Shown here piece after piece: positions 4,855 to 56,989 of a stretch of 64,000 bases of DNA. Every line of letters begins with the position of its first letter. Position 1 is the stretch's first letter. The stretch is taken from the NCBI RefSeq assembly GCF_000143415.4, contig NW_003314366.1, forward strand, positions 462,132-526,131, in the 5' to 3' direction. The notes beneath the pieces are model-generated. The model searched no databases. It had not been told where the DNA came from and saw only the letters and a list, made by a program, of their open reading frames with translations. The translations under genes were made by a program, and so were the position numbers. The stretch comes from Selaginella moellendorffii. Lineage: Eukaryota > Plantae > Lycopodiophyta.

Positions 4855-4856
<2 letters not shown>

Positions 4857-4893
<37 letters not shown>
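4857..4893. repeat. (AT)n microsatellite
   Basis: About 18 AT units. Confidence 0.95.
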
Positions 4894-4895
<2 letters not shown>

Positions 4896-5068
4896 GTTTA
4901 TAAGTTGAAAAAAATTATTAATATTAATATCTAAGGAAATTTTGTATGATAAAATATTTTAGATTATCTATATATTGTGAGGTGCAAGTGTACAACCACA
5001 TTGCAATATACTATTATTACATACTAGAATTTTAGTAGTTATCAATTTGGTTTCAATCCAGATCACTC

Positions 5069-29779: not shown

Positions 29780-32700
29780 GTGTATATGCATAGCAATGGC
29801 AAAGCTTTGAAGAAATTTTTCTCATCTTGGAGCTCCACCATCTTGGCGCTCCTGGCGGTTCTCAAATCTAGCAGCAATAGCAAGAATGTAGGCCAGGGAA
29901 AGACGATCCACGCAAGAGCGATCGCTTCCGGCAGCGAATCCAACCTCTTGGTCGCCAGCAGCCTTGTTACAATGTACTCCAAGTGTGGAAGCACCGCAAA
30001 CGCGACCAGGGTCTTTGATTCCATGCCCCTCCACGACGCTGTCTCCTGGAACGCTTTGATCCTGTGCTACGTTGACAATGGCCAAGAGATCTTTGCGCTC
30101 GACACACTCTCGGAGATGCTGCTAGAAAATCAAACTCGAGCACCACCGGATGCCGTGACCTTTGCTGCAGCGATCAAAGCTTGCGCTGGCCTGGCGAGCA
30201 AAGAAAACATCCATAGTGAGCTTCTTACAAAGATCGAGGCTTTGGAGAAAACTATGAGAGTTCACTCTCGAGCTGCAAGGATGGGATTTGAGCAGGACAT
30301 GGTTGTGGCGAGCTCGCTCGTGGATGCCTACGCAAAATGTGGGAGTTTGCTGGATTCTCGCAGAGTTTTCGATAGGATGGTTCATCACGACGTCGTCGCT
30401 TGGACCTCGCTCCTTCTCGGGTATGCTGATACTAGTGCTCCCAGAGATCTTGGCCTGACTTTGGATTTGTTCTCGGCAGGCATGGAGGCTGCTGGATGCT
30501 CGCCAAACACGCGGACCTTCGTTGCAGTGATCAAGGCTTGCGCAAACTTGGCCGTGAGAGATAATGGTAAGAAGGCGGCGATGCTGCTCAAGGGGAGAGA
30601 CTTACACTTGCAAGCTGAGAAGCTCGGATTTGGAAGGGATGCTTTCGTAGCAGCCAGCCTGGTGAACTTCTACGCGAAGTGTGGAAGGATGGAGCAGGCT
30701 CGAGAAGTTTTCGACAGGATAAAGCAGCCAGATGTGGTGTCATGGAACGCTCTGATCTTGGGATATGCTGCGAATGGCCAAGGAGAGGTGGCTTACGAGC
30801 TTTTCCAGAGGTTTCTTCGACGACACAGAGATGGATATAGTTCGATCGCTCCCGACGGAGTAACGTTTGCTGCTGCTTTGAACGCTTGCGGCGGCATGGC
30901 AGCGAAAGAACAGGCCAAACTTGGGACTGGAAAGCTGCTCAAAACTCTCGACAAAGTCATGGCTCTTCACGTCCAAGCCGAGAAGAGCTTGTCGTGCGAT
31001 AAGTTTCCCAAGAGTATCGTCAACAGTCTCATGGATCTGTACGCCAGGTGTGGAAGTTTGGAGGATGCGAGGCGAGCATTCGACAGGATGTCGTGCCACT
31101 CGCATTCAAACTGGACGAGTTTGATTTCGATCTACGCCGACTACGACGAACCGGAGCTTGCTTTTGAGCTCTTCGAGCACTTGCAAGCTCATGACGAGCT
31201 TATCAATGCCCGAGCTTTCCTTGCCGGACTAAAAGCCGTCACTGCTCTTGTGGAACGAGAACAAAGTGTGAGACAGGCTGATGGAAAACACTTGAAGTTG
31301 GTTTCCTTGAAGACCGCCTTGGAGATCCACTACCGAGCCATCAGCCATGGCTGCGATTGCGATAGCTACGTCGCATGCAGCCTCGTAACTCTTTACGCAA
31401 AGTGTGGAAGTCTTGTGGAGGCTACGAAAGTTTTCGAGGAGATGGCGGAGCCGCCGGATGCTGCGTTGTGGAACGCAGTGATTTTGGGATGTGCCGAGAA
31501 CGAGCAAGGCGACTTGGCACTGGAATACTTCGCAAGGATGCAAGCTACAGCTTCCTGCAAGCCAGACGCCATTACTTTCTGTGCTGCTCTCGAGGCGTGC
31601 AGTGTTTTAGCCGGGAAAGAAGCAGGCACACAAGTTGAGGGCGATAAAGTTGCGAAGCTCGTTTCGCTGGAAAGAGGCATGGAAGTTCATTCCCGGATCG
31701 TGAAAGATGGTCGTGGAGAGCTAGAACAAGACGTGGTTCTTTCGAGTGCACTGATCAGCATGTACTCGAAGTGTGGAAGCCTGGTGGATGCTGTGCGAGT
31801 TTTCGAGAGGATTGAGCGGCACGACGTTGTTTCTTGGACGGCACTCGTGCTCGGATGTGTAGAAAACGGGGAGGCCGGACTGTCTTTGAGATACTTTTGG
31901 CCGATGCTGCTAGAACGGGACTCGTCTTCTTTCAAGCCCGACTCGAGAGCTGTCGTGGCTGCGCTCAAGGCTTGCTGCGCCCTGGCAGATGAAGAGAGAT
32001 CCTCTCTAAAACTCGACGAGACATCGTCCAAGTTGATGGTCGAGAGTTTGGAGCAAGGCATGGCGGTTCATTCCGAAGCAGCCAAGCATGGATTCGAACT
32101 CGACATGGTGGTGGCCAACACCTTGGTGGAGTTTTACTCCAAGTGTGGAAGCATGCTGGACGCTCGAGCAGCTTTCGACAAGATGCCTCAGCGAAACTCT
32201 TCGTCGTGGACTTCACTCCTGCTGGGATATGTCGAGTGTGGCCAGCCGGAGGTGGCTCTGGAACTCTTTGAGCTCGCAAGAGCAAGCAGGAGGGATCTCT
32301 TCGATGCTCCTGGCTTCGTTGCTGCTCTCAAGGCTTGCGGAGTTCTGGTTTCACTCCAGTCGGCGAAAGATATCCATGCCGAGATCTATCGACGTCCAGA
32401 CTTGCTCGAAGAGAACGAGCTCTTGGTGACGACTTTGGTGGATGTGTACGGTAAATGCGGCAGCATGGTCGATGCTGAACACATTTTTGACTATGTGGTC
32501 GCGGCGAGAGACGATCCAGTGATTTGGTCGGCACTTATCTCTGGATACAGTCGACAGGGAAACACGCAACAGGTGCTTGGAGTTTTCCGCAAGATGGAGG
32601 GCGAGTTTGTGCGAGTGAGCTCCAGCTCGTTGCTGTGCTTCCTCACGGCTTGCAGTCACGCAGGCCTTGTGGAGAAAGGAGCTCGCTGTTTCGAGAGGAT

Positions 32701-33054: not shown

Positions 33055-34899
33055 CTAGAAGACTTTGATACTGCCACCACCTTTGCCACCACTACTAAGC
33101 GAGAACAAGTTCCGGAGAAGAACGTAGCTAGCGCTCGTCGTCGTGGAAACTCTCGAGAGTACACGCTCCGCGGCATGAGCTCCGTGGTGCAGGCTATTGT
33201 GGCTCTTGCAAGCAGCCAAGAGACACGTCCACTCGAGCATGTCCGGAACAAATGGCATCGTGAGTATGAGCTCCTGCGCGTGATCCAAATGCCCAGCTCG
33301 TCCCAGGAGATCGATCATGCAGCTGAAGTGCTGCTTCGTCGGCTGGATCCAGTAGTCCATTGTCATGGACACGAACGAGCACTTCCCAGTGTAGACTTTG
33401 CCTTCGTGACTGCAAGCGATGAGGATGGACGCAAAGCACACTGCTCCAGGCGAGTGAATTGCCTTCATCGTGTCGAAGAGATCAAACGCTGCTGTGTTGT
33501 CTGTGTTTTGGGCATAACCAGCGAGCATCGTGGTCCAGGAGACAGAGCTTTGCTCGGGCATTGAGTGGAAGAGCTTCTCGGCCTGACCAAGATGCCCGTT
33601 TAGAGCAAAAGCCGAGAGCATTGCATCCCAAGACACTGAGTCCCACTCTGGCATCCGGTAGAAGATCTCCTCGGCCTCTTCGATGTACCCGTTTTGAGCG
33701 AACGAAGCCAACATCACTGTCCACGATACCATGCTTCGCTCTGGAAGAACTCTGTCAAAGATGTGTGCTGCGTGCTCCAGATGACCCTTTTGGGCATATG
33801 CAAGCATCAGTGTGTTCCAACAGACGAGATCCCATTCCGGCATCCGATCAAATACCGACTTTGCTTCGTCGATTTGCGAAGAAGCAGCGTAGAGCGAGAG
33901 CATCGTGGTCCATGAAACGAGATTCTTTTCGGGCATGTCTTGGAAGAGCTTCTCAGCGTCATACGTATGCCCGTTTTGGGCATATGCTGCAAGCATAGCT
34001 GTCCACGACACAACATTCCACTGTGGCATTTTAATAAAACAGTTCCGTGCTTGATCCACATTCCCGAACTGAGCATATAGTCCCAAGATTGCGGTCCAGG
34101 AAACCAAGTTTCTCTGTGGCATCTGATCAAACATGGTATTTGCTTGATCGATTTGACCATTCTGGGCATATAGAACGAGAATCGCAGTGCACGAAACCAA
34201 GTCGTGCTCCGGCATTCCATCAAACAACCGCATGGATTGCTCGAGGTTACCGTTTTGAGCGTATGCAGCCAGCATGGCTGTCTCGGCGATCATGTCTCGA
34301 AGTGGCATAGCATCGAAGATCTCTTTCGCAGAGAAGATATGACCCTTTTGGGCATATGCCGCGAGCATGGCAGTCCAAGAAACAAGGTTCTTTTCAGGCA
34401 TAGAATCAAAGATTTGAGTGGCTTCGAGGAGCAAGCCGTGACCGATGAAAGCAGTGAGAATCGCGTTCCAAGAAACGATGCTAACAATTGGAGTAGAATC
34501 AAAGATGATCTTTGCAGAGTCAAGATGCCCACACTGGGCATATGTCGAGAGCATGATGTTCCAGGAGACGAGCGAGCGCTGCGGCATGGAATCAAAGAGG
34601 AGCTTCGCGTTTTCTAGCTGCCCATTACGGGAATAGGCCGTGAGCATGAAATCCCAGCTGAAAGAGTCCCGCATGGCCGTGTCCAATCGATCAAACACCT
34701 CTCTCGCGAGCTGTGGACTCCCGCATTTGCCAAACATCTCGATCAGCTTGTTGAGGATGAAGATCGAGGAGGACGATTCATCGCCACCGTGCTTGATCGC
34801 GACCGCGCGCCGCACGCCATGCTCGATCGCCCGAGCTAGAGACAGCGACTTGCAAGCCTCGATCCTGCGAAGCCACTCGTCCTGGGTGTGAAGGATCAT
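33055..34899 (-). CDS. PLS-class PPR protein dominated by 31-aa SS motifs, E domain, no DYW
   Basis: Tandem 31-aa repeats (VSWTAMLAAYAQNG..A..F..MPE), ending ACSHEG..HFSCMIDLLGRAG..WTCLLAAC. Confidence 0.93.
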   Translation of the reverse strand: MILHTQDEWLRRIEACKSLSLARAIEHGVRRAVAIKHGGDESSSSIFILNKLIEMFGKCGSPQLAREVFDRLDTAMRDSFSWDFMLTAYSRNGQLENAKLLFDSMPQRSLVSWNIMLSTYAQCGHLDSAKIIFDSTPIVSIVSWNAILTAFIGHGLLLEATQIFDSMPEKNLVSWTAMLAAYAQKGHIFSAKEIFDAMPLRDMIAETAMLAAYAQNGNLEQSMRLFDGMPEHDLVSCTAILVLYAQNGQIDQANTMFDQMPQRNLVSWTAILGLYAQFGNVDQARNCFIKMPQWNVVSWTAMLAAYAQNGHTYDAEKLFQDMPEKNLVSWTTMLSLYAASSQIDEAKSVFDRMPEWDLVCWNTLMLAYAQKGHLEHAAHIFDRVLPERSMVSWTVMLASFAQNGYIEEAEEIFYRMPEWDSVSWDAMLSAFALNGHLGQAEKLFHSMPEQSSVSWTTMLAGYAQNTDNTAAFDLFDTMKAIHSPGAVCFASILIACSHEGKVYTGKCSFVSMTMDYWIQPTKQHFSCMIDLLGRAGHLDHAQELILTMPFVPDMLEWTCLLAACKSHNSLHHGAHAAERVLSRVSTTTSASYVLLRNLFSLSSGGKGGGSIKVF

Positions 34900-38958: not shown

Positions 38959-41893
38959 GGAGCATCGGCCAGTCGATCTCCCGGGGGAACTAGAGCCGGC
39001 TCTTGAACACTTCACCAAGCTACCCTACTTATCGGTCTGTGTTCACTCTAGTTTTGGACTTCCCAGTGGGCAGCTCATCACCCAACACTGGGTCCGGCCT
39101 TCCTGGGCCAAACTGGCCTTTCCTGGCCAAACTGGCTCCATTGCAGTCCTCCCCCTACTATACTTTTGGAGCTCACCAAACCCCCCAGGGTCTGGGAGAC
39201 AAACGCTTTGGGCTTTCACCCTCTCAGACTCGAACTCGGACTCGGCCTCGGACTCGGACTCGGACTCGGACTCGGACTCGGACTCGGCCTCGGTCTCGGT
39301 CTCGGTCCCGATCTCGGTCTCGATCTCGGTCCCGGTCTCGGTCTTGGTCCTGGTCTCGACTTCGGACTCCATCTCGGGTCCATCTCGGACTCCATCTCGG
39401 ACTCCACCTCGGACTCCATCTCGGGTCCATCTCGGACTCCATCTCGGACTCCATCTCGGGTCCATCTCGGACTCCACTTCGGACTCCACTTCGGACCCCA
39501 ACTCGGGTCCATCTCGGACACTTCCACGTGTCATGTGTTGGTCCTTTTTGGTCCCTTTTTGGAGCCTCGCTTATGGCTCGCTTCGTGCTCGTTCCTCGAG
39601 CCCTTTGTTGGGAGTTCCACTCCCGCTCTCGACCTTCCAAGTCGGGGCTTTTAGTCCAAATGTGTTACGCTCGTTTGGTTTTCGCTTTGGCCACCACCAC
39701 ATGGCACCCTTCCGGCTCCACTTTGGGGCCTAGGGATTTTGTGTCTCACAACTCCACCACCCATAGATGAAGTTTGATGTCCTCATCGAACGGTAAACCC
39801 TTTCATAAAGTAACACCCACATGTGTTACCATTTCCATCCTTGGCACCCAGCCAATATTTGTCTATGGTTTGACACCAAAGGTTCACCATGCCTTGTCCA
39901 TCCTCTAAGGAGCATAGCCTCTCCAACTTAGAGGCTCATTTGACCACTTGTGGTGGTTCTCTCCTTTTATTGGTTTAGTTCTCACTAAACCTGTTAGAGA
40001 CACCTTCTCTAACTCGATCCCACTACACGTTCTCGAGTGGTCTCACTTTCCATCGATATAACCCTTGCATTTTGGAACCTTTTAATTTTGACTTCTCAAA
40101 GTCAATTTCCTAAGTGTCTCCGACACCTCACGTTGCACATGGTGCAACTCCACTTCCTGTCCTAGGAAGTTCTTTATTTGAGGGCACCATCATCCTCTCT
40201 TTGATATCGTGCCACCCTTGGCACTAAGTTCCAGCTATCATAATTCGTGCTAGGGCGGTCTATGGCCCTATCATTTGGCTACTTTACCACTCCATCCCTT
40301 GGAGCTTCCCCCTTCACCAAATCGGAGCAATTGGGAACCTATCCTTGGAAACATATTGCTTTCCAATAATCCATTAGCATCCAACACATTAGTGTTCTTG
40401 GACTAACTTTGCCATTTGGCTTCTATCCCATGATTCCCATGGCCCTTTTCTTAGCCACTAGTCTTTTGCTCCTATCCTTGATTGTTGCACCACGCAACAC
40501 AGGATCGTCACCTCCATTTTCGAGGTATCCCTTCAATTCCATAGCAAAGACTTTGCTTTGCCAAGTCTAGAGGGTGTTCACCCCTAGTACGTCTCCTTAG
40601 CATTTTCTGCCATGGGCTCTATCATGGCCCAACTTTGAGACCCTCCGATGGATTTCTTATAGAGACTACTTTCCTCGGACTTATTATGCCATCACATTGA
40701 CATAGCTCATTTCCCTTAGGTGTTCCTCCCACTTGGTCACCTTGGCCAAGCCACACCATCATCAATAGTTCCAATCAACACTTTGAACTTGGAACTTTAT
40801 CCCTTAACCTCACAAGGACCTTGTTCTTGTTTTTGGCCATAAGATCACCTAGTGATCTAATCTTGGCACGTTAACAGGTTTGCCAATGGGTACTAGGTCT
40901 TCCAGACCTTTAAGTTATTCACCATGACCCTGGGGGCATCCCCCACACTTAGCGGTGCACCCAAGCCAACCTTTCCGGCCAAGGGTCCATGGCAACTAAG
41001 ACTGGGTGTCCCCATCTCATTCACCACGTCCTTGGTGCCACTTGCACCAAAGTGTTCAAGTTAGATATGCCGAGCTTTCACACTAAACAATCTAACCATG
41101 CATCACGACTTCGAGGCATCCCTCGCTTGGCAGTGTGCCCAAACCAGTCTCCTCACTGAGAGTCCATGACCACCGAAATATGAGTGTCCTCATATTCTAA
41201 ACCATCACCGCGCCCTAGTGAATTGGGACTCGAACCCAAGCACTAGAGGGTCAGGACTCGAACCCAACCTCCGTATATGCATCTACGAACGGCATCACAC
41301 AAGATGCCTGGCGTGACTCCCCATGCCGGTGCACCAACTTATATTTAAAACGTGCTATAGATCACAGCTTAGGAACCTAGTTCCTCCACACTGCCAAGTC
41401 CTCTCACTTGACATGTCTGTGATCATGTATGGACTCCTCTATGCTTGGCCCCATGGGCCACTAAGCTCTATTTCGTTAAAGTGGGAATTGTCATTATCCC
41501 ACTTGTAAAATAAGGTTTCCAAACCTTTATATAGTATATAAATATAACAAAATTCAACTGCATTGAGGCACATGCCATTTTATTTTAAACAAGGAAATGT
41601 CTACTCAATCACTTCTCACTGCTTCACCTCTCTCTTCTCCTTGCCATCGTCGTCCAATTTCTTTCCATCCTTTTAATATTGGCTCAGTTGCTCCGAGTCT
41701 AGGTGGAGCCCAAGTCCCCATTCAATCTTTACTTTCCCCTTATTAATAAAACAACTTCGTAGACTTCCAATAACATGCTGTAACACTTCTAGTATAATGC
41801 AAATCCTCTCAAAGAATTGTCTTTTAATATTAATACAATGGCATGGAACCCCATGCCATAATAAGTTACATTTTTAAATAAATACATGCCATC

Positions 41894-44800
41894 TCAGACT
41901 GTTATTTTTTGCCTCCAACGCCTATACAATAATCTTGGAATTTCATCACTCTCCACACTATCAGGATTTAAACCCAATAGTAATGCCATCTCTTCTCTAA
42001 TACGTCCACGCTCATGTTCAGTGGTCGAAGAACCCATCCGGTTGAGCAGATTATGGAGATGCGGATAGTGCTTGGCTAGACAATATACATGCCATAAATG
42101 ATGACTGGTGTCTGTCTGATCAAATGGCTTCTGATATACCGTTCCATCTGCCATTTGGTTGATTTCTGCAGCCACCTCCTGGACTGGCCGGTTCTCTATC
42201 ACCATCGCTTCAAGCCGTTTTGCAAGGTCCCCCAGAACATACGGTTTCTTCTCCCTAGTTTCCATACTGCAAGAGATGGGGTGCACTGCATATGTGTGCG
42301 TGTTCGCTGCAGTTTTAATCGGCGAGTCATCGATGATGAGGATTTCACTTGACCTAGCAGTCCGGTTCATCACTACAGCCTCTGCCTTGACGAAGATGGG
42401 CTTGCTACCCCTCACATGGACCATAGTCAAGCAATCCTCCTGCGTTAGGAGAAAGTCAAATGGTAATATTACTCGCGTCTGATCGTGCATCATCTGTAGC
42501 AACGTTAATGCATTGTGGCGCATCATGGATGTCCAAACTCCCAATTGCAAATTGAACCCGGCCCTCTGTTTTAAGTGTCGCATGGTCATTATTAGATCCC
42601 GCAGTTTCTCCCGTGTGATTAATGTGAATCTGTCTCTTTTGACCAACTTGCGACCGCAGGCTTTGGAGGGTGCAGTGACATTCGAGGACGAGCCACGCTC
42701 ATGGGAGAAAAGGACACCGTTCAGATAAAAAACGATACAGTACTTTCGCCGTGACTCTGAAATGAAATGCGTTAGCATAAAAAATGGTACAAGTCAATTT
42801 TACCATCTACAATATTAGCGAATGGTGCTCCCGATGGTCGTTCAGAGGGTTTTGGTCGAGGAAACGTGAAGGGCGGAAATACTCTCCTCTGCAATGTGGG
42901 GTCAATCGCATCCGATGGCGTGTGGGCACATGCCATTTCAGCTGTAGACTCTGGTACAACTGGCTCAACAGTGGCATGGGGTGGTTCCGATGGCGTGTGA
43001 TCACACGCCATTTCAGCTGGTGCCTCCGTTGGCAAAGTGGACATGACCGAACAGGCAGCAGGGGCGGTGTAGGGAGGTTCCAACGGCGCGTAGTCAGACG
43101 ATTGGGCACACGTTGGAAATGAGGATATGACCGGCTCGGCGGCTGGGGCGGCCTCATGCGGGTCCAATGGCGCCTGGTCACCGTCAGTTGGATACGTGGA
43201 CAAGATTGACTCAGTGGTATGGGCAGCATCAAGTGGAGCGTGGTCAGCTTGCTTGGCGTTGATATGGATAGTAGCCTCCACCAGCTCTGATGACTCTTGC
43301 AGGCAAGTAGAGTCCACTGGCGGATCCATATGCATGTCCAAATATCTCCCTTCGATTGAGATGGTATCCTCCCGTGCTACTAAAAACAAACTCATTAGCA
43401 CATTGAATCGACTATACTGTATTTACCATCAACTGCTATTGAGGAACTAGGACCGATATCACTTGGGCGCACTGCTGATTCTGAAGGATTGGACATACGT
43501 TTCGACCCTTGCTTGGCACTATCCTTCCTCGACACTAAAGGCTAGAGTTTGTATCTTAATTCAACTGAATAATCTCTACTTACCATTTCTTCTACGACCT
43601 ACATGGACAATGTTAGAAATGGTAAAAGGTTAGGAATGGATGTACTATTATTTACCTGATGGTTTGTCTTGTATGACCTTCCTCCGCTGCTCTTTGGCCA
43701 CCTCAGGCTGGCCATCGTCGTCATCATCGTCATCGTCGTTATTGTGATCGTCACCATTGTGAGGACCATCCAAGTCCTCTTCGTCCTCCTCTTCTTCGTC
43801 CTCCTCTTCTTCGTCCTCCTCTTCGTCCTTCTGCTCTTCCTGCTCATTATCTTTCTCTGGCTCCTCATCCCCCTCTTGCATTTCTTCCATAGGCTGCTCA
43901 GGCTGGATTGCTTGTTTTTCCAGGACCATCTTGGAAAAATCATCTGGCCGAGTCTCCATCTCAAAATACAAGACATCCATAGCCTGTTTTAGTGCGTGAC
44001 CTAGGACCGTATCCTCACTCGACTGTCTTAACATGGTTTCTGCACGTTCTTGCACCCTTCGAAGACGACGAGATGAGAAAAACGTGGCCCTGACTTGAAA
44101 AGCATCCCTCATCCATTGTACCTCTCCATTGAGATTGGGGAAGGGGAGTCCGCCATAGGAATCTGAGTCAGAAGGTGGTGACTGGCTCCTTTCACTCAGC
44201 CCTTGATCTGCAATGAATGGCATGAGCACACACGCCATAACCGCGAGGCATTACCTATCATCTTTTCGTTGCCCTTCTTCCTTTTCGAATCAAACGCCTC
44301 TGATCCCGACGACTGTCCAACGTGCTTTCGCTTTTTATGACCACTGTCAGTTTGAGCTTGGCTGGTGCTTGCCTGTTTTGCCTTTGAAGAAGTGTCTCCT
44401 GCAAGGAATGGCATGAGACCACACGCCATTGCAAATATAATTTGTACCTCCTTTTTTCCTATTGCTTGTCTGTTTGTCCTTCTTCGACGCGCCACCAGTG
44501 CGCTTTTCAGTCCTCGTGTCTGAATATTCACAACGATCTATAATCAAAATGGCGTGAGGCCTCACGTGACCTTACCTTGTGCAGGTTGTGACCTCGGCCT
44601 AACATCAGTAGCTGTTAACGCCGTTTCAGCATCTGGGGGTGGCCACGCTCCTGCATACAGAGCTTGTGAGATAACATTTAAACTTAAAGTGCGTACTCAC
44701 CAGGTTCGTAGAGAAGATACTGTTTTTCTTTGGCAACTGTAATTATATGCTCCATTGAAGTCACCTCTTCAATGGAGTTTGTCACCGCAACACACGGGAC

Positions 44801-47263
44801 ACCCTTGAGTAGTGCGGCTCGAAAGAATAGTCCGCCGCAGTTGTACTCGACAACGCATTTGCCCTTGGAGTCACCCGCTATTGCGTTGAAGACCCAGCTG
44901 AGCATTTCCCATGCTGCACCTGGAGCTTTCTTTGGATTCGAAAGCTCCATATCCGTCTTCAGTTCCTCAGGCACGGGTAAATTGACCTCCTTCAGATCAA
45001 TTCGATCGGCTTTGTTGAACGAAGCTAGGAAGTCACTCCAGTCCCACTCTGCTGCAGGACCAATAACAAGGGCGACTGTGAAGATGCGGACATTCGTCGG
45101 TATCTTCTTCTTAGCCATTATCCCATGGATCTCCCGCATGTCCTTGCCTTTCAACCGAGCCTTCACCTCGTTCAAGGCCTTCCAGAACTTGTGATAGGAT
45201 TCGGAGTCGTAGATCATATAGTGGACTGAAGATTCCACCTCCGCAAGTCCCACCATTAAGTCAATGATGGAGCTGACTTCGTCTGCATGAGTGATCTCCT
45301 CGTTTGTGAAGTCCATCACACAAAAGATGTTCTTGACCTGCTCATCTCCGCGGGAAACGATGCTCCTCCACCTTTGATCCTCATCCGAATTCACGTATAC
45401 CCGGTAAGGTTCTCGATAGGCCTCTGCTGCGGGGTCGAGCTGTTTCTGAAGCCGGCGGTCGACATCCCTCTTAATGAAATTTGGATACTGATCCAACTTC
45501 TCAGCTTTACTTTTCGTGGCATCCCGCAGCAGATCGATGAACTTGGTGGCCCCCTTCACGTACTCGTCGATGTCTTCATTTGACAAGTCCAGCTCTTCCA
45601 TCATCTCTTGCGTGGTGTCGATGCTCACCCTCGCCACGGCCACTTGCTCGAAGATCCAATCCTTCAATAGCGCACGAGCTCTCAGAGTCGTGCACAAGTC
45701 CTCGTATGTCACAATATGGCCGGGAGTCATTTTGGTCTTGTTGAAGACTACCTCACCAAGTAGAAGAGCATTAGCCACTGTCAGAAGGTCGTCGTCGTCT
45801 AGAGACCGCGAGAAACGCAAGGCGTTGAGCTTCAAATCATTGGGCTTCCGGCCGTCCTCCACACCCATTGAGTTTAGCAACTCCCCGTCATGGTACCTCC
45901 TTAGCACATCTACCCATTTGTCAAAAACAACTTTTGTCGCGAGTAGAATGTTATGGATGCTGAGTGTGTCATTGACCCCCAGTGTTTTCGAGAGAAGACT
46001 CGAGAATTCCTGCAATGGAAATGGCGTGAGGCCACATGCTATGCCACATGCAACGAGGCTTACCTGCCAGGCGCTAGTTGCTAGTGCACGTCCTTGTCCT
46101 GGTTTTTGTGGCTTCTTCAGTTGAACCCAGAGCTTCCGTGTTCGTGCCAATGTCTCGTGCAGACCCGATTTGTAGCACGTTTCTTGCTTGACATTCTGCG
46201 CGTGGGAGATGTATATGATAGATCGGAGGGGCGAGTTGCCTTTTATCAGGCGGACAACTCTTGTCTTGAAGACTTTCTTCACCTCCTCGCCCACCATAAT
46301 ATCCACAACTATCTGTTGCATCGCCAAGCTAGAATGCTGCCCGGAGACGGCATAGAACCGGATGTTCTGATCGTCCAACACCTTCCTATTGATCAAGTCT
46401 GGAAACCTCGTCTCGCCCTTCATTGTTCGGTAGTAGGGGATCACGTCTGCGATGTCGGGTGTTACTGGACTTGCCAGCATCTTCTGCTTCAGTTTCTCCA
46501 CCCACTCATCAGATACTAGCCTGTGGTTGTATTTGCTTTGGATCTCGATACGGCTCACGTCGATTGTATATACTTTGTTGGAATAGTAACAAGTACTATT
46601 ATCTGGGACGATTTTTGCTGCCTCTTCTTGCTCTTTCTGCTCTTTGCGGCTCTTCTTTTTGGTGGGTGTAGTGTTCGAACCCGAGGCAATGGCATCACCG
46701 AGTAGCTTCTTTTTTGGAGCAGCAGAGTCGGACGTCGGCTTGAGCTTGACCACCCTTTTCTGCTTCGGGGTAGTTTCCAGATCGACCCCCTTCCCCTTCG
46801 CTTCGCAAACTGGAGGCACTCTCAACGGCTCAATGTTGGAATATAGTTTTTGAACATCGCCGTAGGTGAGGTCCGTGGATTCCATGTGATCTTCATAGAC
46901 CCGCAGCGTCTTTGAAATTGTGGGCCTCCTGGACAACCTCTCCCTAGCTCCCTCTAGGAATTCCTCATAGCCGCTGCCCCCCTCCGGGAAGCCGCTAGGA
47001 TGTGCAAGGTGGATCTTGAAGGCGGACGCTGTCTCTACCACAAGTGCCAGTCCATATTCTTGCATGGAACTGCATGGAGTGTCTGTCACTTGGATGAGGA
47101 TCCCCATGCATTCTTTTCTCCCACCATCTGTGTTGTACAGCATCAAATCCTCGCCTTCCATCCCGAAAGTCCAACTGGTGAGCTCCTCCCCCTTCTCTGC
47201 ATCCACATTGACAGTGGCTGGAAGAAGAACGCAATTCCTCGCCTGTTCAAAAATGCACAACAA
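41894..47263 (-). CDS. Transposon accessory gene, ~1640 aa: ParB-like + amino-MTase-like + acidic/Pro-rich linker + FCP1/NIF HAD phosphatase-like
   Basis: Exons 47263-46064, 46009-44701, 44650-44576, 44519-44448, 44398-44255, 44207-43656, 43598-43584, 43534-43427, 43379-42804, 42756-41894 join through GT-AG introns of 47-57 nt into one open frame of 4914 nt. FCP1 motifs YLNGVL, GVWTS, QEDC, FVK, IIDDSPIK are clear. True start is uncertain. Confidence 0.78.
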
Positions 47264-47694
47264 TTAGAGCTGACAGATGAAAAGCTAGCAGCTGGAAATA
47301 ACGTGAGGCCACACGCCATTCACCACTGCATCAGATGTCTTGAGGCTGCATCCTAAGATGGCGTGAGGCTACACGCCATCTGTAACCGGACTGCACTCGA
47401 GAGCCCAATCGGTGCATGCCAATGTTGCTACTGAATGGCATGTGGCCTCATGCCATTTTCTACTTCGTCTAAAAGACTTACCATTTGAAGCCGAATGGAG
47501 GCCGTGACAATCGAGGCCGGACTCGCTGGCGAATGTGCACTGTGTGTGCAGCGGATCGTAGCAGCAAGGCTACTCTGCCACTTACAGTTGGAGAGTGGTG
47601 CTGAAATCTCCCGGGACGCCAAGTGGGCTGCGTGTGGGTGGTGGAGTGGGCGGCGGAGTTGGCGGCGAAGTTACAAACTGGGTGTGTCTTGAAG

Positions 47695-47870
47695 TGGACG
47701 CCGATGCACACGAGCGCGATGCGAGCGCGAGTGTGATGCAAGCGCGAGTGGACGCCGATGCACACGAGAAACCTGTAGAGAAGTGAGCGTGATCGCGAGT
47801 GGGAGCGCGATGCGAGCGGGAGCGCGAGTGTGATGCGAGCGCGAGCGCGAGTGTGCGAGCGCGAGTACAA
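47695..47870. repeat. CG-rich degenerate tandem repeat (GCGCGAGT/GCGAGC) at the presumed 5' leader of the accessory gene
   Basis: Directly visible. Confidence 0.75.
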
Positions 47871-49081
47871 AGCAAAATGCAAAACCTAACCTCACACGCG
47901 CGAAATGTCACAACGGTTGGTAATCCCGCCACGTCATCATTCCTCGGACTTGGGCGCCACCATTAATTTCTGGATTGCCGCGCGCATGCAAGCACGCAAA
48001 ATCCAAAAGAAATCCGCAACGTCATCATTCCTCGGACTGCATGCACGCAAAATCCAAAAGAAAGATCATGATTGGGATATCATTTAATACCCTCGCTATA
48101 TTTATACCATGCATGATTGGATATTCCAAAGCATCTTGTATTTCCAAAAATGGCAGATGTTCAGCTAAATAAAGAAATTCTATCTGTTTCTATTTTTCTC
48201 TCAAATCAATATTATAGCGTGTGGGCTCATGCAATTTTGAACCAAAGAAACCCAAAAAACGTTGGACCCAAAATATTTTGAAAAAACCCAAAAAACCCTA
48301 AACATTTTAAACCCAAAAATCCAGGCGTCCTGTGGCGTTATTCCTTCAATGGCGTGTGGGCGCATGCCATTTTCAGGGCCAAATGCTGAATGGAGAAAAA
48401 TTCCCTTTCAGTGCAAATGCTGCAAGAGGCAGATGCCGAGCACAAAGGACTGTAACTACCTCACATGACACAGATAAACTTTTCTCTATTTGGCAAAGAT
48501 AAACTTTATAGCGTGTGGGCTCATGCAATTTTGAACCCAAAAAATGCACTAAAAAATTCTCGGCGTCATCTGGCATTATCTCTTGAATGGCGTGGGGCCG
48601 CATGCCATTTTCAGGGGCACATAGGAGTATATTCCTAGGATATTCTGACACGCGCGAGATTTTTTTGAGTTTTCTGGAGATCCAACCGTTAGATCGCAAC
48701 TAGATTTTACAGAATGGTATACAATGTCTTTCTTGATGACTCTGCAAAGAAGCATCTCAATCGGACACCACATGAGACCACACGAGCCTTACAATGTTTC
48801 AGGGGCATTTGCCATAGATCCGACCGTTATTTTGCTCCAAGATTTCACAGTTTGGTGTGCATTGACCTTTCCATCGAAACTGCAAAGGGACATCACAATC
48901 AGATGCGGGATCACAAGAAACTAACTTCACTAACTCTGGTTTCACCAAGATCTACGTAAGGAGTTATGAAATGAAAGGACCCTCTCTATTGAAATGTGTT
49001 TATGGTCCTAGGGGCATTGTGACATATCAAAGGATTTTGCATCAAGTTCTGTATTTGCATGTTTATCAAGCTACTGAATTG

Positions 49082-49115
49082 CTAAACCCTAAACCCTAAA
49101 CCCTAAACCCTAAAC
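49082..49115. repeat. Interstitial plant telomeric repeat (CCCTAAA)x4-5
   Basis: CTAAACCCTAAACCCTAAACCCTAAACCCTAAAC. Confidence 0.93.
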
Positions 49116-49949
49116 ATGTGGCAAATGCTGCGTGAAGAAAGATGCCCTTTCTGGGCAAATGCTGTAAGAGGCAGATGCCGAGCAGATGTATCTCAGGCTA
49201 GCGAAGGGGACGAACGAAAGCTAGCTATAAACATGACGGGATGCAAATAGATTACTAGGCTGGTCCTACGAAAATCAAAAACCATAATTGAAAACATTGA
49301 AAATGCAAAAAGAAAGGTTTATAATATTTTTGAATTTTAGGCAACCAAAGGAATGTAAGTAGGGCATGTGTTTGTAAGTTTAAAAATGCCTCAACCACTT
49401 AAATTCCCAAGTAAATAAAGCTGTTTCTATTTTTGGTACAGGTAAACTTTATAGCGTGTGGGCTCATGCAATTTTGAACCCAAAAATGCACCAAAAAATG
49501 CTCGACTAGCATTATTCTTTGAATGGCGTGTGGCCTTATGTCAAGCATTATTCTTTGAATGGCGTGTGGCCTTATATTGCCATAAATGGACGTACACACA
49601 CAGCGTAATTATTCCTTTACACGGCGAATAATCTTGGCGCGGATCGCTGACATGGCATGGCAAAGTTCGAATCACTGACATGGCACAGCTGGATCGAGGC
49701 AAGGACATGATGTGACAAAGTTCAACCTCCGACAGCAAAGTCTAGAAGCTACTCAGTTTGAAATTTGTCAGAGGAATCATAAGATCTGGTTTGTCAGAGG
49801 ATTTGATGTGACGTTCAAGCGTGTGTTATTTTTGAATTCTCGAACTCATTCCTAGGTCTATCATTTTTGTGTGCCGTGTTCTTGGTTCCGCTGAGCGCAG
49901 TGAGCGCTGCTTGTGTAAGCGGCGTTGTGGGCTGTGGTTTATGTGTCTA

Positions 49950-50080
49950 CGAGCGGTTGCGGCATTGCGAGCGCCATTGCGAGCGGCAGTTTATGCGAGT
50001 GGCAGTTTGTGCGAGCGGCGCTACGAGCAGTTGCGGTGTTGCGAGCGGCGCTACGAGTAGTTGCGGTGTTGCGAGCGGCA
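49950..50080. repeat. 30-bp CG-rich tandem repeat (GCGAGCGGCGCTACGAGYAGTTGCGGTGTT) at the presumed 5' leader of the transposase
   Basis: Units at 50011, 50041, 50071 and degenerate units upstream. Confidence 0.8.
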
Positions 50081-50445
50081 CTGTCTTTGGTGTGGCTACC
50101 GCTTCCTCTTGATATTCGGCACTTGTGCTTCCTGGTATGTTCACCATGGAATGGCTTAGGACCACATTTAGAAATGGCATGAGGCCACATGCCATCTTGG
50201 GCCCTTGCAATTTCATGGCTAGCGTATTGTCATGTATGTTTTTACTTGCCTGCAGCTGTGTGTATATCAAGATGGCATGAGGCCTCATGCCAATTTTGTG
50301 AATGCGAAATTTCACGTGGGTGTCAATAGCATGTTTGAATAATGGCATGTGGCCTCATGCTATTGAGGTTGTTTGGTATGTTATGATTTAGGCCATTCTC
50401 CAATCATTTTTTGTATGGTCTTAACTTCTTTTCTGCACTTTCAGA

Positions 50446-53400
50446 ATGGCCTTCAGGGTTGGGGAAAAGGTTTACATTTTGAATGGTGGGAAGAGAGTTG
50501 CAAAAGGGACCCTTGTGTCTATGGATCGGAACTTTGTTATACACTCTGAAAGGCTTGGGGAAGGCAATGCTGCTGTATCAGTAGAGACTGTCTTCGATGG
50601 GAACGTGGTCGCTATTGAACGAGGAGAGATGGTCGTCGGGGTAAATGTTGTTGTTGCCTTGAAAAATCTTCAGAAGAAAGCAGATGTTGGGGACAGCGCA
50701 AGTGCGACGCATGTTCCCTCCGTGGATCTTAAGAACCGTGCTACATGGATTCAGGCAAAAGTGTTTCTAAACAACCCCGAGGGGGAGGTGGTAGCTGAGG
50801 GCTTAGCCACAGTTGTCGATCCAAGAGATGCGGTTGCTAATCAAGAATTGGGCTGGGATGATATTGGAGTTGCGATTTTAGAGGTTGTTGACACAGAAGA
50901 AAACAGTCTGACTATTGGAAGCATTGTGCGGTGGAAATTGAGGCACTTAGTGTTTGAGAATGTGAAGGATTCACAATCAAACACCACTACAACTGATGAC
51001 AGAACATCTCTTCATGGGAAAAGAAAGTACACCTTCCTAAAGCGCAGCCAAAGGGATCTGAGCAACGAACCGAAAAGGCAGAAAATGGCGATGGAGGTTC
51101 GAATGGTCTCGACAGTTGCTTGTTGCAAGAGGAGGTGCTGTCAACATGCTGATTGGGATGCTATTGAAGAGGAGAGAGCAAGATACAAGACATTGTCCTG
51201 GAAGGCAGCTCGCAATTTTGTGTATGAGGCATTACGGTCATCTGTTGATGCTTCAGAACATCAGGTGGGGGGCATGGTCTTCCAGAGGGGTTTGGTCTGC
51301 ATGAAGGCATGGAGAATCATTTATGGAGTCCCTCGAAGCACATTCTACAGAATCAAAACTGAGTTCGAGGAACAAAGGGTTCAACAGGTAGTCCATGGGA
51401 ACGACGGTACGCACAAAACCAGGGGTCATGTTGTATATGGAGAGGCAATCTTCAAGAGGTTTGTCGAGACATGTAGCGAGCAGCAACCACATAAAACCCG
51501 CCTCTTGGAAGATGGAACACGAGACACCCAACGAGTTCTCCCTTCCATGTATACCAAGGGGGCCATATTGGAAGATGTGAATCGGGAACTCCAGAGTAAT
51601 GGCTACAGGAAGCTGAGCCAATCTAGATTTAGTAGATTGTGGAGCAACAGGTTCAGGGATGTGAGTATAGGAAAGTACTCCAGCTTTTCAAAGTGTGACG
51701 AGTGCACTGCTATCAAAATGGCTTTGTCGAAGAATTCTTGCAGCGCTCAAGAGCGAGAGACGTTGGTTAGAAGGCGGCTCGACCACAACATCGAGCAGAG
51801 AAGCTGCAGGACTGCATATTATCATAACAGGATTCTCTCCATGGAGAGACCTGACTCTTACCTCTGCATCATCCACGACAAAATGGACCAGAAAAAGACG
51901 TGCTTACCTCGACTCAATCCTGCCCCCAAGGCAATCTCTTCATCCATGCAGCTGCCTGTGTCTCTGTTTGGCATAATCGCTCATGGGCATGGTGCCCAGA
52001 ACTATGGGAACTTCTTTGTACCTCTATGGGGTGGCGGGGGTGCAAACATGATGATTGCGTCCCTAGCAAAACACTTAAGGTCTCTGCAAAGTGCGCAGAC
52101 TGAGCTGAACGGCCAACCCTTGCATAAGGCCCTTGTCGATCGAACCCCATACAGGGTTCAGCTGGAGGAGGAGCAAAGGCTTGCAGTATCGCGTGGGGCC
52201 CCATGCCATCCCAGTGAATATGTTGGCCGTCAGATTGTAGGGTTATCACGTGAGGCCTCATGCCATTCCGACGAGGCTGGTCGCCCGGTGAATGCACAGC
52301 CTCATCCAAACGAAGCAGAATCTCAAGGAAGTTCTTGCGGCCGATGTGGCCTTCCACCCCATCTTCTGCTCCAAACAGACAATGCTGGCAGTGAGAACAA
52401 AAACATGTACGTCTTCGCGTACTTGGCGATGCTTGTTGCCAAAGGCATATTTGAAACGGTTACACTTGGCTTTCTCATGGTTGGGCACACTCATGAAGAC
52501 GTCGATGCCATGTTCAGTCACCTGGCAGAGTCCCTCCGGCGATCCAATGTCCTCACCCTCCCACAACTCTACGATGAATTCCAAAATTGCATCAAAGGCA
52601 CTGTTGAAGCTGCACTTCTGACAGAGGTTCCAGACTTTAAGGGGTTTGTAAGAGGCTACATCAGGGACGGATCCGAAACGCTGATTGGCCACTCCAAGCC
52701 TCTTCAGTTTCATTTCAGCATGCGTGACGGTGCTCCAGTGATGAGGTACAAGATGAGAGAATGGGACACAGTGTGGCTGCCAGTGGACGGCATTGAACTC
52801 TTCAAGAGAGATCCCATAACTGGGGAACCTATGATTTCTCAGGGTTCCCCACGGCCGATGCACCCGGATGGACTCAAAGACCAGGAAAGTATAGTGGCCG
52901 GGATTAGATAGCATATTGCCTTCTGGAAGAGGGGGTTGGTGTTTGGTGGAGAATCCTATTTTCAGAGGTGCAAGCCTTTGCTCGAATACTGGGAGAAGAT
53001 TATATCTGCTATCCAAAATGGGCCGGTTGTATATGAAGAATTGGAAGAGTCCTTTTGGCCAGAACCCAGAGCACCAGATAGTAGCGGAACAATGTCCTCT
53101 GGAAATGCAGTGACAGATAACGATGTTGAGGATCACTATTGTGGGCCGAGGAACAAGAAGCCGGATTCAGCATTCAATCCAGTACAGGTCTGCAAAGGAA
53201 TGGTCGTGCTTGTCAGACCCAGTAATAAAAAACAAATGATATGGGTGGGGCGCTGCATCACTGATGCAGAGGAGGACGCGGAAACTAACTCCTTCAATGT
53301 AACTGTGGAGTGGTTCAAGCCAAGTTCCGGATATACGAAGGATTGCCTAGAAAAGAGATGGGTGCTGAATCCAAGGGATCCCAGCATGAGCATATCGGTG

Positions 53401-53587
53401 GATAATGTTGTGCATGGTTGGATGCGGAAGCAGAGTGCCACCATCACCTTGCCAGACCATGCAAGAGATGCAGCAAGAGCATTCATAACTCGGGTTCAAG
53501 GTGAGATTCATTAATATTCCTTTACAAAGTTTCTAATGTATTTTATTTCAAGGTGAACAATCCGAATCTGAATCAGAGGAGGCTTGA
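50446..53587 (+). CDS. Sola-like DDD/E transposase with a single premature TAG at 52909-52911
   Basis: CCKRRCC and CDEC..H Cys/His clusters; HDKMDQ, QTDNAGSENKN and FLMVGHTHEDVD motifs. ORFs 50446-52911 and 52936-53514 are in the same frame. Probable last intron 53501-53552 with terminal exon GEQSESESEEA*. Confidence 0.85.
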
Positions 53588-53802
53588 TATAGTGTGTGAG
53601 GTAAAACAAAGATGATGTGACATATGCATTTACCAATCACACGTGCATAAATCTAATAATATGGCGTGTGGCCCATATTAATGGCACATAAACCCATATT
53701 GTGGGCTTACGTGCTTTATGTACCATCATTCCCTTGCAGCGTGTGTGTTGGTTTCCTTTTATAACACAACGAACTCCATATTTTAGGGTGAAGAGCGTTC
53801 TC

Positions 53803-54060
53803 ATGGCAAGCACAAAATCTGTAAGTGAGGCAGAAAAGGAGACGGAGAAGGAGATAGGTGAAGATGTAGAATATATAAGTCTTCCAAACTCCCCGTACTA
53901 TACTCCAGGTGATCATTTTTCTGAACAAACGGCAACATTAACAACTATCGAGAACGCCCCAGTAACGTCAGAGACAACAATCCAAAGCAAAACAACTGAC
54001 CCGGAGAAGGATGATAGTACCGCTGAGAGTACCAAAAAGGAGGTGTCCACTAGCGCTTAG
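53803..54060 (+). CDS. Small 85-aa Ser/Thr/Glu-rich transposon ORF of unknown function
   Basis: Homologous to 60327-60572 (SLPxSPYY, NAPxTxETTIQSK, DSxAExTxK). Confidence 0.6.
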   Translation: MASTKSVSEAEKETEKEIGEDVEYISLPNSPYYTPGDHFSEQTATLTTIENAPVTSETTIQSKTTDPEKDDSTAESTKKEVSTSA

Positions 54061-56989
54061 GCTTATAATGGCGTGTGCCCTCATGCCATTTACTTGATCA
54101 CCAAATACCTTTTTCCCTTTGCACTAGTATATCTTAATACCGGTCTAAGAAATAGAATGGCATGTGCCCTCAGGCCTTTTACTAAATCACCTTTGAAAGA
54201 AATGCAAGCCTCTATGTCGTAAAAAAAAGGTACTAGAGAAATTCCTTAATAATATGAATGTTATTTAGTTTCATGAAAATACACTAAGGGTCAAATGAGT
54301 TAAATGACTTCTCCAGACTAGCAATGCCTCTTGCTACACCTTCACAATTAGATTCGTTAGAAAAAGATAACATTGAATAATATCTAAATGTTCTCACCAT
54401 TAAGTTATATGTCTGGCTAATAGGAATGATGTTCATCTTGGAAAGCTCACCACACGCTCAATGAACAAACAAATAGTGTGTGCGCGCATGCCATCGCTCT
54501 TCTTTAGCTTCAGATTCGGCTTGTTCACCTTGACAATGAGATTTATTATACAACTAGATGGACTCAGTCTGGACATAAGGTCACCGCGCTAGTCACCATG
54601 CCCCAGATATGTCTAGCCCCTGGACAAAAAACATATAATTTCACGTCATTTTCAAATACTTGAAAATTTGTACCTAGTCCCATTTTACTAAATAAATCCC
54701 ACTTTAACGAAATAGAGCTTCACTCCTTTGAAGTTGGCTTCTTCAACTAGGGTATTCGTTCCCCCAACTTGCCAATCTCACTTAGCAAATCATCCGGCCA
54801 CCGTAACATGGTTCATGCATAAGCGTGAAAGTCCTTAACCATCGACTTTCGTTCAAAGCCCTCTCTTTGAACACTCGGGAACTACTTCCCCAACTTTGAT
54901 AGCCTCGCCTCATGGCAAGCTTCAAGACCACGCTTCTGCTGTGCCACTCTGATTTCGCGCGTTCTATGAACCATTTACACTTGGCTTTCTAGGTATCCAG
55001 CTACCTAGAATTGTCTTTGGGAACCTTTCGAAGGAACTCTGTCCTTTTAGCTTGCTAAGGCCTCTCCTTTCGCAAGCTTTCCAATTGCCATATAGTCTAA
55101 CATGGATAATTCCACATTTTAGACTTTTCATGGCATCGCGGTTGCTAGTAACAACATCCTCGAGCACCCTTTTGATTCTCCACTCTCAACTTGCATAACC
55201 ACCATTGGTTATGCCCTTTGATTTCCATAATTCAATTCCATCCCAATACTACTTGCCCTTTGGCCTTATATGTTTCCTTTGGTTATTCTCTTTCAGACTA
55301 GAAGGATAACTTTGCACATTTTACCATGCCTTAGCAAGTATTCATAGGGATGAACCTATCCAATAGCTTAGAGAGTGGTTCCTTAATTTGGGCATGCTCA
55401 CCTTATAATCCCACACACCGGGATTACCGTTGCTACTTATGGGCCTCTATATGCCCATCACTAGCCTTGCCAAAATCCCTCTTTGGCTTTGTCCAATTTG
55501 GGTAGACGGACTTCTCCCATCTCCACAACCTTGGACATTTGGATAGCACCTCCTATCCTCATTAGCTAGGGACTTTGTCCCTTGGGCATTATCCATTCCC
55601 CTCATGACACTAAACACCACCTTCTAGTGTTTTAGAGTGCTTGGGTGTCCCAATGATGGCCTCTTTGGCAATGAGCATTCCCTTTACGACATTAACTTAC
55701 TATTTTGCAGCATAAGCAATTTATCCCTCATAAGGGTATATCTAACTTTTTTATCCCAATAAAAAGTCTTAGGTAGTTGCCTTCTACCCGTTTAACGAAT
55801 TATTTTGCACCTTTTGCTTAATTGCCTCATAGTTGTCAAGTCCTACAACTCATTGCCGGTGTTTCCACACCTCCATCATTATCTGGGTCACCACACTCTA
55901 ACCGCATGCTTTCTAGCTTAAGCTTTGCCATTCCCATTTCCATTGGGATTCCTTTGGACGAAGTTCTTATGAACCCGCTAACTTGACCTCAAGGCAGCAC
56001 GCCTTGGCACCTTCAGTGTCTCCACACCATCGGCTCCACGAGCCTATCCTTATAACACTACTTATTAGTTTAGGTCTTTGCCAAGACCAATATAGTTGTT
56101 CCTCATGCTAACTTTCCACTAGCACCGCACCATAGTGTTTGCACCCAACTCTAGGCCAAAGTTGCTTTCTTCTGGGAACATCTTTCCCACGACTTTAATA
56201 TGGCACATTCTGCCATCAATGAGATACTCCAAATGCTTCAACCAATCCCTTAGGACCATTCCCTGACTCCACTTGAGTCATCCAGCATTTTAGACTTTGC
56301 TAATCCAACGACCTGCGAGGTCTTAGTCTTCGAGGTGTCAACTCGCTGGAATACAACTTTTTGTATTCAGGTCTTGCTCACAAGGACCATCTTTGCAAGT
56401 GTTACTCCGACACTTGATTTGATCTCTTGGGGCAACCTTTTGCCCCTTAGGACCACTTGTCCATGTGATGAGAATACCAACTCATCCTCTGAGTACACCC
56501 CCAACTCCTTGGGTTGTTCCAGCATTTATTAGAGGTACCCCCGGCTACCATTTCAAGGACTTGTGTCCTCTTCTGTATTTGACCTCCCATGGTCATCAAT
56601 TCTGGTCTCAAAGTTATGAGCACCAGCCTCAACTATATGAGGGTAATCTTGTGACTCCTTTATTGTTTTGGAGTCTACATCTTTCCCGTGATCCCAACTA
56701 TAGTTGTTTACCACAACTACGTTAGCCCGTTTGCTGCGTCAAACGCTCATCTACATCACATCCTCAGCTCTCTGAGGAAACCTTATACTGTTCCCAAGAT
56801 CCCAAAGTCGTTCCATTATTGGCCCTTTTCTATCCACCACTTTGTCTATAAGTTCCCACATGAACTGTACTGGAGAGCCATGTCTTCTCGACCTGCTACT
56901 CCTCAAGGATAGGCCCACTCCTCAAACCTACCGATGCCAACACTAGTGGTGATATACTTGAGCACCAATAAAAGTCGGACTAAAGAACA

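Follow-up and report, generated by a model that had tools for sequence, protein, structure and literature searches.

Dispersed and intronic 22-bp palindromes in a Sola1-like transposon of Selaginella moellendorffii: putative sites of an element-encoded ParB-fold protein

The window analyzed here, a 64,000-nucleotide stretch of Selaginella moellendorffii contig NW_003314366.1, contains a probable Sola1-like transposon with two genes on opposite strands, a DUF7869 transposase gene and a large accessory gene (Table 1). A 22-bp pseudo-palindrome, ATGGCRTG-N6-CAYGCCAT, recurs along this element; it is real and, within the window, restricted to it. The palindrome is probably a double-stranded DNA site for a dimeric protein that the element itself encodes. 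We favor the accessory protein, whose predicted ParB fold would make the palindromes putative counterparts of the bacterial parS or Noc sites, and give this assignment a probability of roughly one-half.

A palindrome restricted to one element

At up to two mismatches, 22 sites were found between positions 41463 and 54720, the limits of the element, and not one in the 50.7 kb of window sequence beyond these limits; at up to three mismatches, the counts were 25 inside and 2 outside. A symmetrised weight matrix, trained on 25 of the same 26 copies that it reports, identified 26 sites in the element with scores of 10.8 to 38.6 bits, the best score outside being 5.0. In 200 third-order Markov shuffles of the element, sites at up to two mismatches numbered 0.035 on average and 2 at most, and a chance origin of the 22 observed sites is therefore rejected. 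All of the copies cited in the initial annotation were recovered at the same positions, and its remark that the core is often GGCC applies to 12 of the 26 copies.

Placement of the copies

Predicted introns contain ten of the 26 copies (1.6 expected), coding DNA contains four (15.2 expected), and the other 12 occupy the rest of the non-coding DNA (8.2 expected). Introns are over-represented even if only the 22 non-coding copies are considered: ten are intronic, against an expected share of 16% (P = 0.001, a value that treats the copies as independent, which they are not fully). Introns may house the sites because, inside a gene, they alone would accept a 22-bp site without altering the protein. 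The four copies in coding DNA, already pointed out in the initial annotation, form one pair in the accessory gene and one in the transposase frame, within its variable insert, both in long intron-free stretches; the largest gap between neighboring copies is 1846 bp. Half of the copies (13 of 26) are found either in the promoter region between the two divergent genes or in the first introns of these genes, and five of the 26 lie within 1 kb of an element end. Six copies in the intergenic region between the genes and five toward the ends add to those placed in the initial annotation.

The predicted small introns are 47-57 nt long. According to the gene model, the palindrome is present in five of the ten accessory-gene introns and in four of the nine small ones, and introns 7-10 are free of it. 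Four small introns with one copy each had been described earlier as consecutive; each does contain one copy, but they are introns 2, 4, 5, and 6. Similarly, two clusters of copies had been assigned to leader introns, which holds for the predicted transposase leader intron at 50135-50444, whereas the intron at 47243-47481 is the first intron of the accessory gene, directly after the ATG.

Variation among the copies

Local duplications include the copies at 48214/48508/49451, 48349/48587, 49523/49559, 54068/54157, and 42915/42990, and introns 5 and 6 are 90% alike over 31 letters. Collapsing local duplications left 20 representative copies for the analysis of the arms. At the two variable positions, complementarity between the arms of these representatives equals chance (0.50 versus 0.49 and 0.35 versus 0.34). 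The inner pair is most often mismatched: T..T or A..A occurs in 15 of the 26 copies, and A..T or T..A in five. Selection for a hairpin or cruciform would keep the arms matched, whereas a dimer that reads two half-sites would make no such demand; arms that vary independently therefore fit a protein site in double-stranded DNA. Variable arm positions 3, 6, 9, and 11 recur at nearly every third base. The flanks of most copies are unrelated (on average, 9.8 of 30 letters alike), which suggests that the site arose or was copied repeatedly without a longer carrier.

The arms had also been described as alternating between CG and TG-CA. This alternation is markedly uneven: of 52 arms, 27 have CA, 22 have CG, and a single one has TG (22, 17, and 1 of 40 arms in the collapsed set), even though copies with TG are detectable by the search. 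Because neutral deamination hits both strands and the decay seen here is one-sided, the C at arm position 5 appears to be selected, whereas the partner strand tolerates T. Since T bears a methyl group like that of 5-methylcytosine, methylation of that strand may leave the site readable.

Palindromes in related elements

Related transposases (25-40% identity) define a set of 80 loci from metagenome contigs, many of which are short, decayed, or one locus recovered from different samples. The motif of the window never had more than one match in any of them. However, a de novo search revealed at least five copies of a near-palindrome in 18 of the 80 loci, compared with a maximum of three in shuffled sequences (one shuffle each); in five of the 18, these are telomere-like repeats rather than clean palindromes. 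Arrays of telomere-like repeats were seen inside or beside related elements at L032, L033, L039, L063, L074, and L080. The palindromes of distant relatives are their own, different from that of the window, and 19-22 bp long, and the clean ones differ by group and track the transposase tree (70 sequences). A large clade has a common 20-bp palindrome with a GGCC core, present in 1-18 copies in 24 of 24 scanned loci (shuffle mean, 0-0.2) and absent from three outgroup loci; six of these 24 loci gave the seeds of the matrix, and another three nearly duplicate a seed locus.

Intronic placement recurs in these relatives. Inferred transposase introns contain a palindrome in four of 11 loci (L018, L021, L037, and L048), as well as in L023, with four different motifs. 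In L037 and L048, a 20-bp palindrome is identical inside an otherwise diverged intron: 21 consecutive alignment columns that span it are identical, compared with about 63 of the 165 other intron columns (hand count).

A decayed homologue of the accessory gene was found in L080, on the opposite strand and 7.6 kb upstream of the transposase gene in head-to-head orientation (E = 1e-5). Several large-clade loci (L059-L061 at 1-5290, L075 at 200-5000, L074, and L033) have in common a 5-kb region upstream of the palindrome array, with decayed minus-strand frames unlike the accessory protein of the window; this region is possibly another accessory gene.

The accessory gene and its protein

A full HMMER scan with the accessory protein returned 14 matches, 12 of which were kept after the repeats P0044 and P0048 had been dropped; word-index searches with the protein and with its alignment found no homologue. 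The homologues include proteins from S. moellendorffii and the liverwort Calypogeia fissa, and none was found in viral contigs or plasmids. Four annotated S. moellendorffii genes (P0043 and P0057-P0059) encode the helical and methylase-like regions and start downstream of the ParB domain; they may be truncated or domesticated forms or the result of mis-annotation. Intron 2 has independent support: once it is taken out, the protein is collinear with spliced homologues (WQ|EF in Selaginella), and a number of homologues predicted on genomic contigs end at this very place.

The front domain of the protein is predicted to have a ParB/sulfiredoxin fold. Its AlphaFold2 model, built on 12 sequences, matches Noc, ParB, and PadC in the nine best Foldseek rows (best Noc E = 2e-4). 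A VIA structural search placed PadC first (Z 9.9; root-mean-square deviation 3.0 over 100 residues), followed by KorB (9.2) and pNOB8 ParB (8.4), with deviations of 2.5-3.0 over 94-102 residues for these top three matches. SerK, sulfiredoxin, and SbnI come next with Z of 6-8, and because they score nearly as high, the fold by itself is not proof of DNA binding. For the conserved helical region that follows, a single-sequence model of 641 residues had low confidence (predicted local distance difference test score, pLDDT, of 33).

The region after that, with an EYNCGG-type motif common to the homologues, resembles in our judgment an N4/N6 methylase; it has no Pfam or PDB sequence match, and PDB sequence searches were uninformative in general. 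A motif scan of the 1631-aa model and six homologues did not find the catalytic motif of N4-cytosine and N6-adenine DNA methyltransferases, (D/N/S)PP(Y/F/W). In the first motif of the HAD-like domain, position 42727 gives Tyr in the window copy and Asp in three sequencing runs, so the domain may be intact in the family. Among 27 listed coding variants relative to other copies, 21 are amino-acid changes.

Which protein reads the palindrome?

We propose that a dimer of the ParB-fold accessory protein would load at palindromes no more than ~1.85 kb apart and would then cover or loop the element, marking cognate copies. Coating could keep these copies active, in expression or mobility, despite host silencing, an effect like that of VANC on VANDAL elements. 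An earlier suggestion that the whole element is coated survives in part: a protein site is favored by non-coding and intronic enrichment, independent arms, one-strand CpG decay, and the conserved intronic copy, whereas even spacing is weak. Throughout the family, the arginine that binds cytidine triphosphate (CTP) is replaced, which makes CTP-driven clamp sliding doubtful; self-methylation is doubtful for a similar reason, replacement of its signature residues. More generally, non-seed land-plant Sola1-like transposons might run a captured ParB-parS system, with clade-specific palindromes set in introns and spacers no more than ~2 kb apart, on which a ParB-derived dimer would load irrespective of CpG methylation and then spread along the element as a sequence-specific anti-silencing clamp. 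We regard this broader idea as rather unlikely; if true, the task performed by VANC in Arabidopsis would have been solved a second time, independently.

Several observations weigh against the accessory protein as the reader of the palindrome. An accessory homologue was found in only one of the 80 related loci, though many of them bear palindromes; most of these loci are short or decayed, and the transposase is the sole gene that always accompanies the palindrome. In L080, the one locus with a relic of the accessory gene, all five palindromes are downstream of the transposase gene and none is near the relic. Seven of the 11 examined transposase introns of relatives are without a copy, as are five of the nine small accessory introns. 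The introns themselves rest on a gene model that two possibly-RNA sequencing runs did not confirm: their contigs over 41300-48700 contain no spliced joints at the predicted introns, being unspliced and uninformative either way. Even spacing is borderline, with P = 0.02-0.14 depending on copy clustering under random cluster placement (0.003-0.09 with the end clusters fixed). On the protein side, a helix-turn-helix is unsupported: a profile comparison with six phage ParB proteins, based on shallow alignments, gave a probability below 1%, and the helical region has no Pfam match. Active self-methylation by a canonical N4/N6 methylase is rejected, as the DPPY-type motif is absent. Finally, GxxRxxA, given as the CTP-binding signature of ParB in passages of PMC13495010, reads GQHSSLA here (a correspondence set by eye), with S or T in place of R in 11 of 11 aligned homologues.

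Several of these points would suit the transposase itself as the binder, its N-terminal or helix-turn-helix region reading the palindrome for synapsis, looping, or self-activation; the ParB-like gene would then be a passenger or aimed at another target. This is the main rival reading, and we consider it less likely than binding by the accessory protein. On the one hand, the palindrome type tracks the transposase tree, many loci have palindromes while one in 80 has an accessory homologue, and copies in relatives form arrays upstream and are scattered downstream of the transposase gene. The transposase N-terminus also has a weak match to PF03017 (TNP1/EN/SPM; E = 0.03-0.08, under the cut-off), and passages of 10.64898/2026.08.24.746577 indicate that transposases can be sequence-specific regulators. 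On the other hand, divergence in step with the transposase is no evidence for that protein in particular, because both genes share one element. The terminal inverted repeats (TIRs) lack the motif, few copies (five of 26) are within 1 kb of an end, and binding by Arabidopsis Spm TnpA is limited to termini in passages of the same source.

The initial annotation also raised an RNA hairpin with a role in splicing. A hairpin or DNA cruciform, acting for example by shortening or regulating tiny introns, is in our view very improbable. Perfect copies do fold at -10 to -14 kcal/mol as RNA, and three of the four small-intron copies end 9-11 nt upstream of the 3' splice site. However, the distance to the splice sites varies overall (5-21 nt from the donor and 9-29 nt from the acceptor), five of nine equally small introns have no motif, and 12 of the 26 copies lie in neither predicted introns nor coding exons. 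The arms show no co-variation, the inner pair being mostly non-complementary (15 of 26), and with arm complementarity at the chance level, selection for a hairpin is rejected.

Hardly credible, too, is a co-opted site of a host transcription or chromatin factor; the 13 copies in the divergent promoter region and first introns would suit such a factor, but each transposase clade has a different palindrome and none occurs near the other genes of the window. Least credible are neutral relics of a tiny mobile repeat (Introner-like or resembling a miniature inverted-repeat transposable element) or of an intron-creating local duplication: some copies are indeed parts of local duplications, and introns 5 and 6 are similar, but CA 27 versus TG 1 and the conserved L037/L048 intronic copy point to selection, and an Introner origin is rejected because flanks are mostly unrelated, the 50.7 kb outside the element have no copies, and intron 2, whose position in the protein is shared by the Selaginella and liverwort homologues, is older than its palindrome.

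Organization of the element

Table 1. Coordinates of the element, its genes and predicted domains, and the palindrome copies (positions in the window)
Feature	Position	Strand	Basis
Whole element, 13,258 bp, probable Sola1-like cut-and-paste transposon in older repeat	41463..54720	.	TIR pair, CACT duplication
Left 4-bp target-site duplication CACT	41459..41462	+
Right 4-bp target-site duplication CACT	54721..54724	+
Left TIR, 27 bp, without palindrome	41463..41489	+	96% complementary to right TIR
Right TIR, 27 bp	54694..54720	-
DUF7869 transposase gene	50446..53587	+	Pfam PF25273, E 1e-42; 13 homologues
Predicted transposase leader intron, 310 nt; copies 50174, 50272, 50342	50135..50444	+	GT-AG read from sequence
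Predicted transposase intron, 52 nt	53501-53552	+	gene model
Accessory gene, 11 predicted exons, 1631 aa, without internal stop	41894..47484	-	10 GT-AG introns modelled
Accessory intron 1, 239 nt; copies 47298, 47358, 47435	47243..47481	-	predicted
Accessory intron 2, 54 nt, in frame, stop-free; copy 46021	46010..46063	-	position common to homologues
Accessory intron 3, without palindrome	44651-44700	-	predicted
Accessory intron 4, 56 nt; copy 44549	44520..44575	-	predicted
Accessory intron 5, 49 nt; copy 44408	44399..44447	-	predicted
Accessory intron 6, 47 nt; copy 44217	44208..44254	-	predicted
Predicted ParB/sulfiredoxin-fold domain with GQHSSLA (GxxSxxA)	46064..46621	-	AlphaFold2 pLDDT 76
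Conserved helical region after ParB domain, candidate DNA-binding domain by position only	45457..46009	-	homologue alignment
Methyltransferase-like region (EYNCGG, without DPPY-type motif)	44702..45456	-	by eye
NIF/HAD phosphatase-like domain	42296..42739	-	Pfam PF03031, E 4.5e-4, 20.4 bits, below 21.8 cut-off
Palindrome copies near left end	41557, 41838 (41557..41859)	.	weight matrix
Palindrome copies in accessory-gene coding DNA, 75 bp apart	42915, 42990 (42915..43011)	.
Palindrome copies, intergenic, parts of local duplications	48214, 48349, 48508, 48587 (48214..48608)	.
Palindrome copies, intergenic	49451, 49523, degenerate 49559 (49451..49580)	.	weight matrix
Palindrome copies in variable insert of transposase frame	52188, 52245 (52188..52266)	.
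Palindrome copies near right end	54068, 54157, 54473 (54068..54494)	.	weight matrix

We take DUF7869 transposases to belong to the Sola1 superfamily, and the element appears to be Sola1-like on the basis of its 4-bp duplication and general features of that family; the combination of TIRs and a 4-bp target-site duplication is present (27 bp and CACT). A 4-bp duplication is also listed for Sola1-1_Ec32 in passages of PMC12477816. In the single insertion seen, CACT falls outside the AWWT/AWDT preference given for Sola1 in passages of PMC3845634. Among 39 loci tested, no complete relative delimited by TIRs and a 4-bp duplication was found. Contigs of sequencing runs X1 and X20 exit the window at 41461, and what follows in them is similar to the right flank; this fits the same host repeat without the insertion. 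Many of the letters in which contigs differ from the window copy are common to several runs, which indicates that the element family has other copies or alleles.

The 13 homologues of the transposase are 29-43% identical to it, except for one database protein at 97% (P0001). The window copy has an in-frame stop at 52909-52911, and in P0001 the frame is lost upstream of that position; both copies are likely non-autonomous. A Pfam scan gave no Mutator-like element (MULE) match for the transposase. An acidic open frame of 122 codons on the plus strand, 3' of the transposase gene (53692-54060), has no Pfam match and no counterpart in the 80 loci; it may be an alternative last exon.

Upstream of both genes, at 47700-47870 and 49940-50090, are GCGA-rich short repeats (GCGAGC, GCGAGCGG) that likely coincide with the transcription starts. 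A stretch of 38 letters at 47549-47586, without an Rfam report, matches contigs of X19 and X6, which continue with other sequence, presumably large-subunit ribosomal RNA (rRNA); it is possibly an rRNA fragment captured in the 5' region of the accessory gene. An Rfam scan of 47000-48700 gave nothing convincing. Rare joints in the X1 DNA run at 44180-44246 and 44500-44563 skip about 60 letters, including the intronic palindrome, off the splice sites, and can be read as deletion variants or assembly artefacts. Outside the element, the repeats at 30329-32231 and 33496-34596 read like genes for a pentatricopeptide-repeat (PPR) protein and a protein with 93-bp repeats.

Comparison with known systems

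ParB or ParB-methylase accessory genes are already known from brown- and red-algal transposons, as the passages cited below describe; new here are the land-plant host, the whole-element and intronic placement of the palindromes, and their clade specificity. The literature covered holds ParB-bearing transposons for brown and red algae only, the green-algal cases of Iyer et al. 2011, which the Ectocarpus paper cites (passages of PMC12477816), being outside that coverage. It yielded no Sola1 or land-plant element with dispersed or intronic palindromes (Bao et al. 2009 and sequence supplements were outside coverage) and no clade-specific palindromes in the DUF7869 family, a term with 0 matches.

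The closest likeness is Sola1-1_Ec32 of the brown alga Ectocarpus. Passages of PMC12477816 describe it as a large Sola1-type element with a 4-bp duplication and an opposite-strand gene for a ParB-like and methyltransferase-like protein, which was proposed to bind and modify its own element. The same layout, an opposite-strand accessory gene with a ParB-like domain inside the element, head-to-head with the transposase gene, is present here and in L080. Sola1-1_Ec32 is 21.5 kb long, has 282-bp TIRs, and encodes an 1104-aa protein with a recognizable N4/N6 methylase (same passages), whereas the land-plant element has 27-bp TIRs and a 1631-aa protein with an extra HAD-like domain and a methylase-like part without the catalytic motif. 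Those passages name no binding site; here, a 22-bp candidate site is spread through the element. In the red alga Bostrychia, passages of 10.1101/2025.02.11.637652 report that Plavaka PAG3 is likewise a ParB-like accessory protein with inverted repeats proposed as its sites. It differs in its EnSpm/Plavaka transposase, its 2-oxoglutarate (2OG)-oxygenase partner domain, and its repeats, which form tandem arrays adjoining the gene, unlike the scattered and partly intronic copies described here.

Dimers of canonical ParB recognize palindromic sequences and spread (passages of PMC13495010), and the ParB-parS and Noc-NBS systems have an N-terminal ParB/Srx fold, palindromic sites, and specificity switches among members (passages of PMC13495010 and 10.1101/724823), much as proposed here. 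The accessory protein differs from bacterial ParB and Noc in its GxxSxxA motif, its eukaryotic, spliced, and multi-domain nature, and its unsupported helix-turn-helix, and no ParA-like gene was seen in the element. Spm TnpA resembles it as an element-encoded regulator with clustered family-specific motifs; however, TnpA binding and demethylation are limited to termini, and TnpA is transposase-derived rather than ParB-like (passages of 10.64898/2026.08.24.746577).

For function, the most instructive comparison is with VANDAL elements and VANC in Arabidopsis. According to passages of PMC5735166, family-specific motifs occupy introns, intergenic, and terminal non-coding DNA of VANDAL elements, protein and motif diverge between families, and the effect extends over the whole element, binding and demethylation of whole elements by VANC having been shown. 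The accumulation of a family-specific motif in introns and other non-coding DNA is present here as well. VANDAL elements, however, belong to the Mutator superfamily, with 8-9-bp non-palindromic motifs amplified as tandem repeats (same passages), whereas here the motif is a 22-bp pseudo-palindrome, mostly in single copies with unrelated flanks, and the candidate protein has a predicted ParB fold; a Pfam scan of the accessory exons gave no match to a VANC-type family. The algal proposals, in the passages cited, name no tested site, whereas this element offers a sharp candidate. Its 26 natural variants define which positions matter, and the relatives' palindromes allow specificity swaps, which makes the proposal directly testable. 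The placement of the copies also suggests a role for tiny introns in accommodating DNA-binding sites. Should the accessory protein counteract silencing, it would join VANC as a second anti-silencing system with sequence specificity and might serve as a programmable tool in epigenome research.

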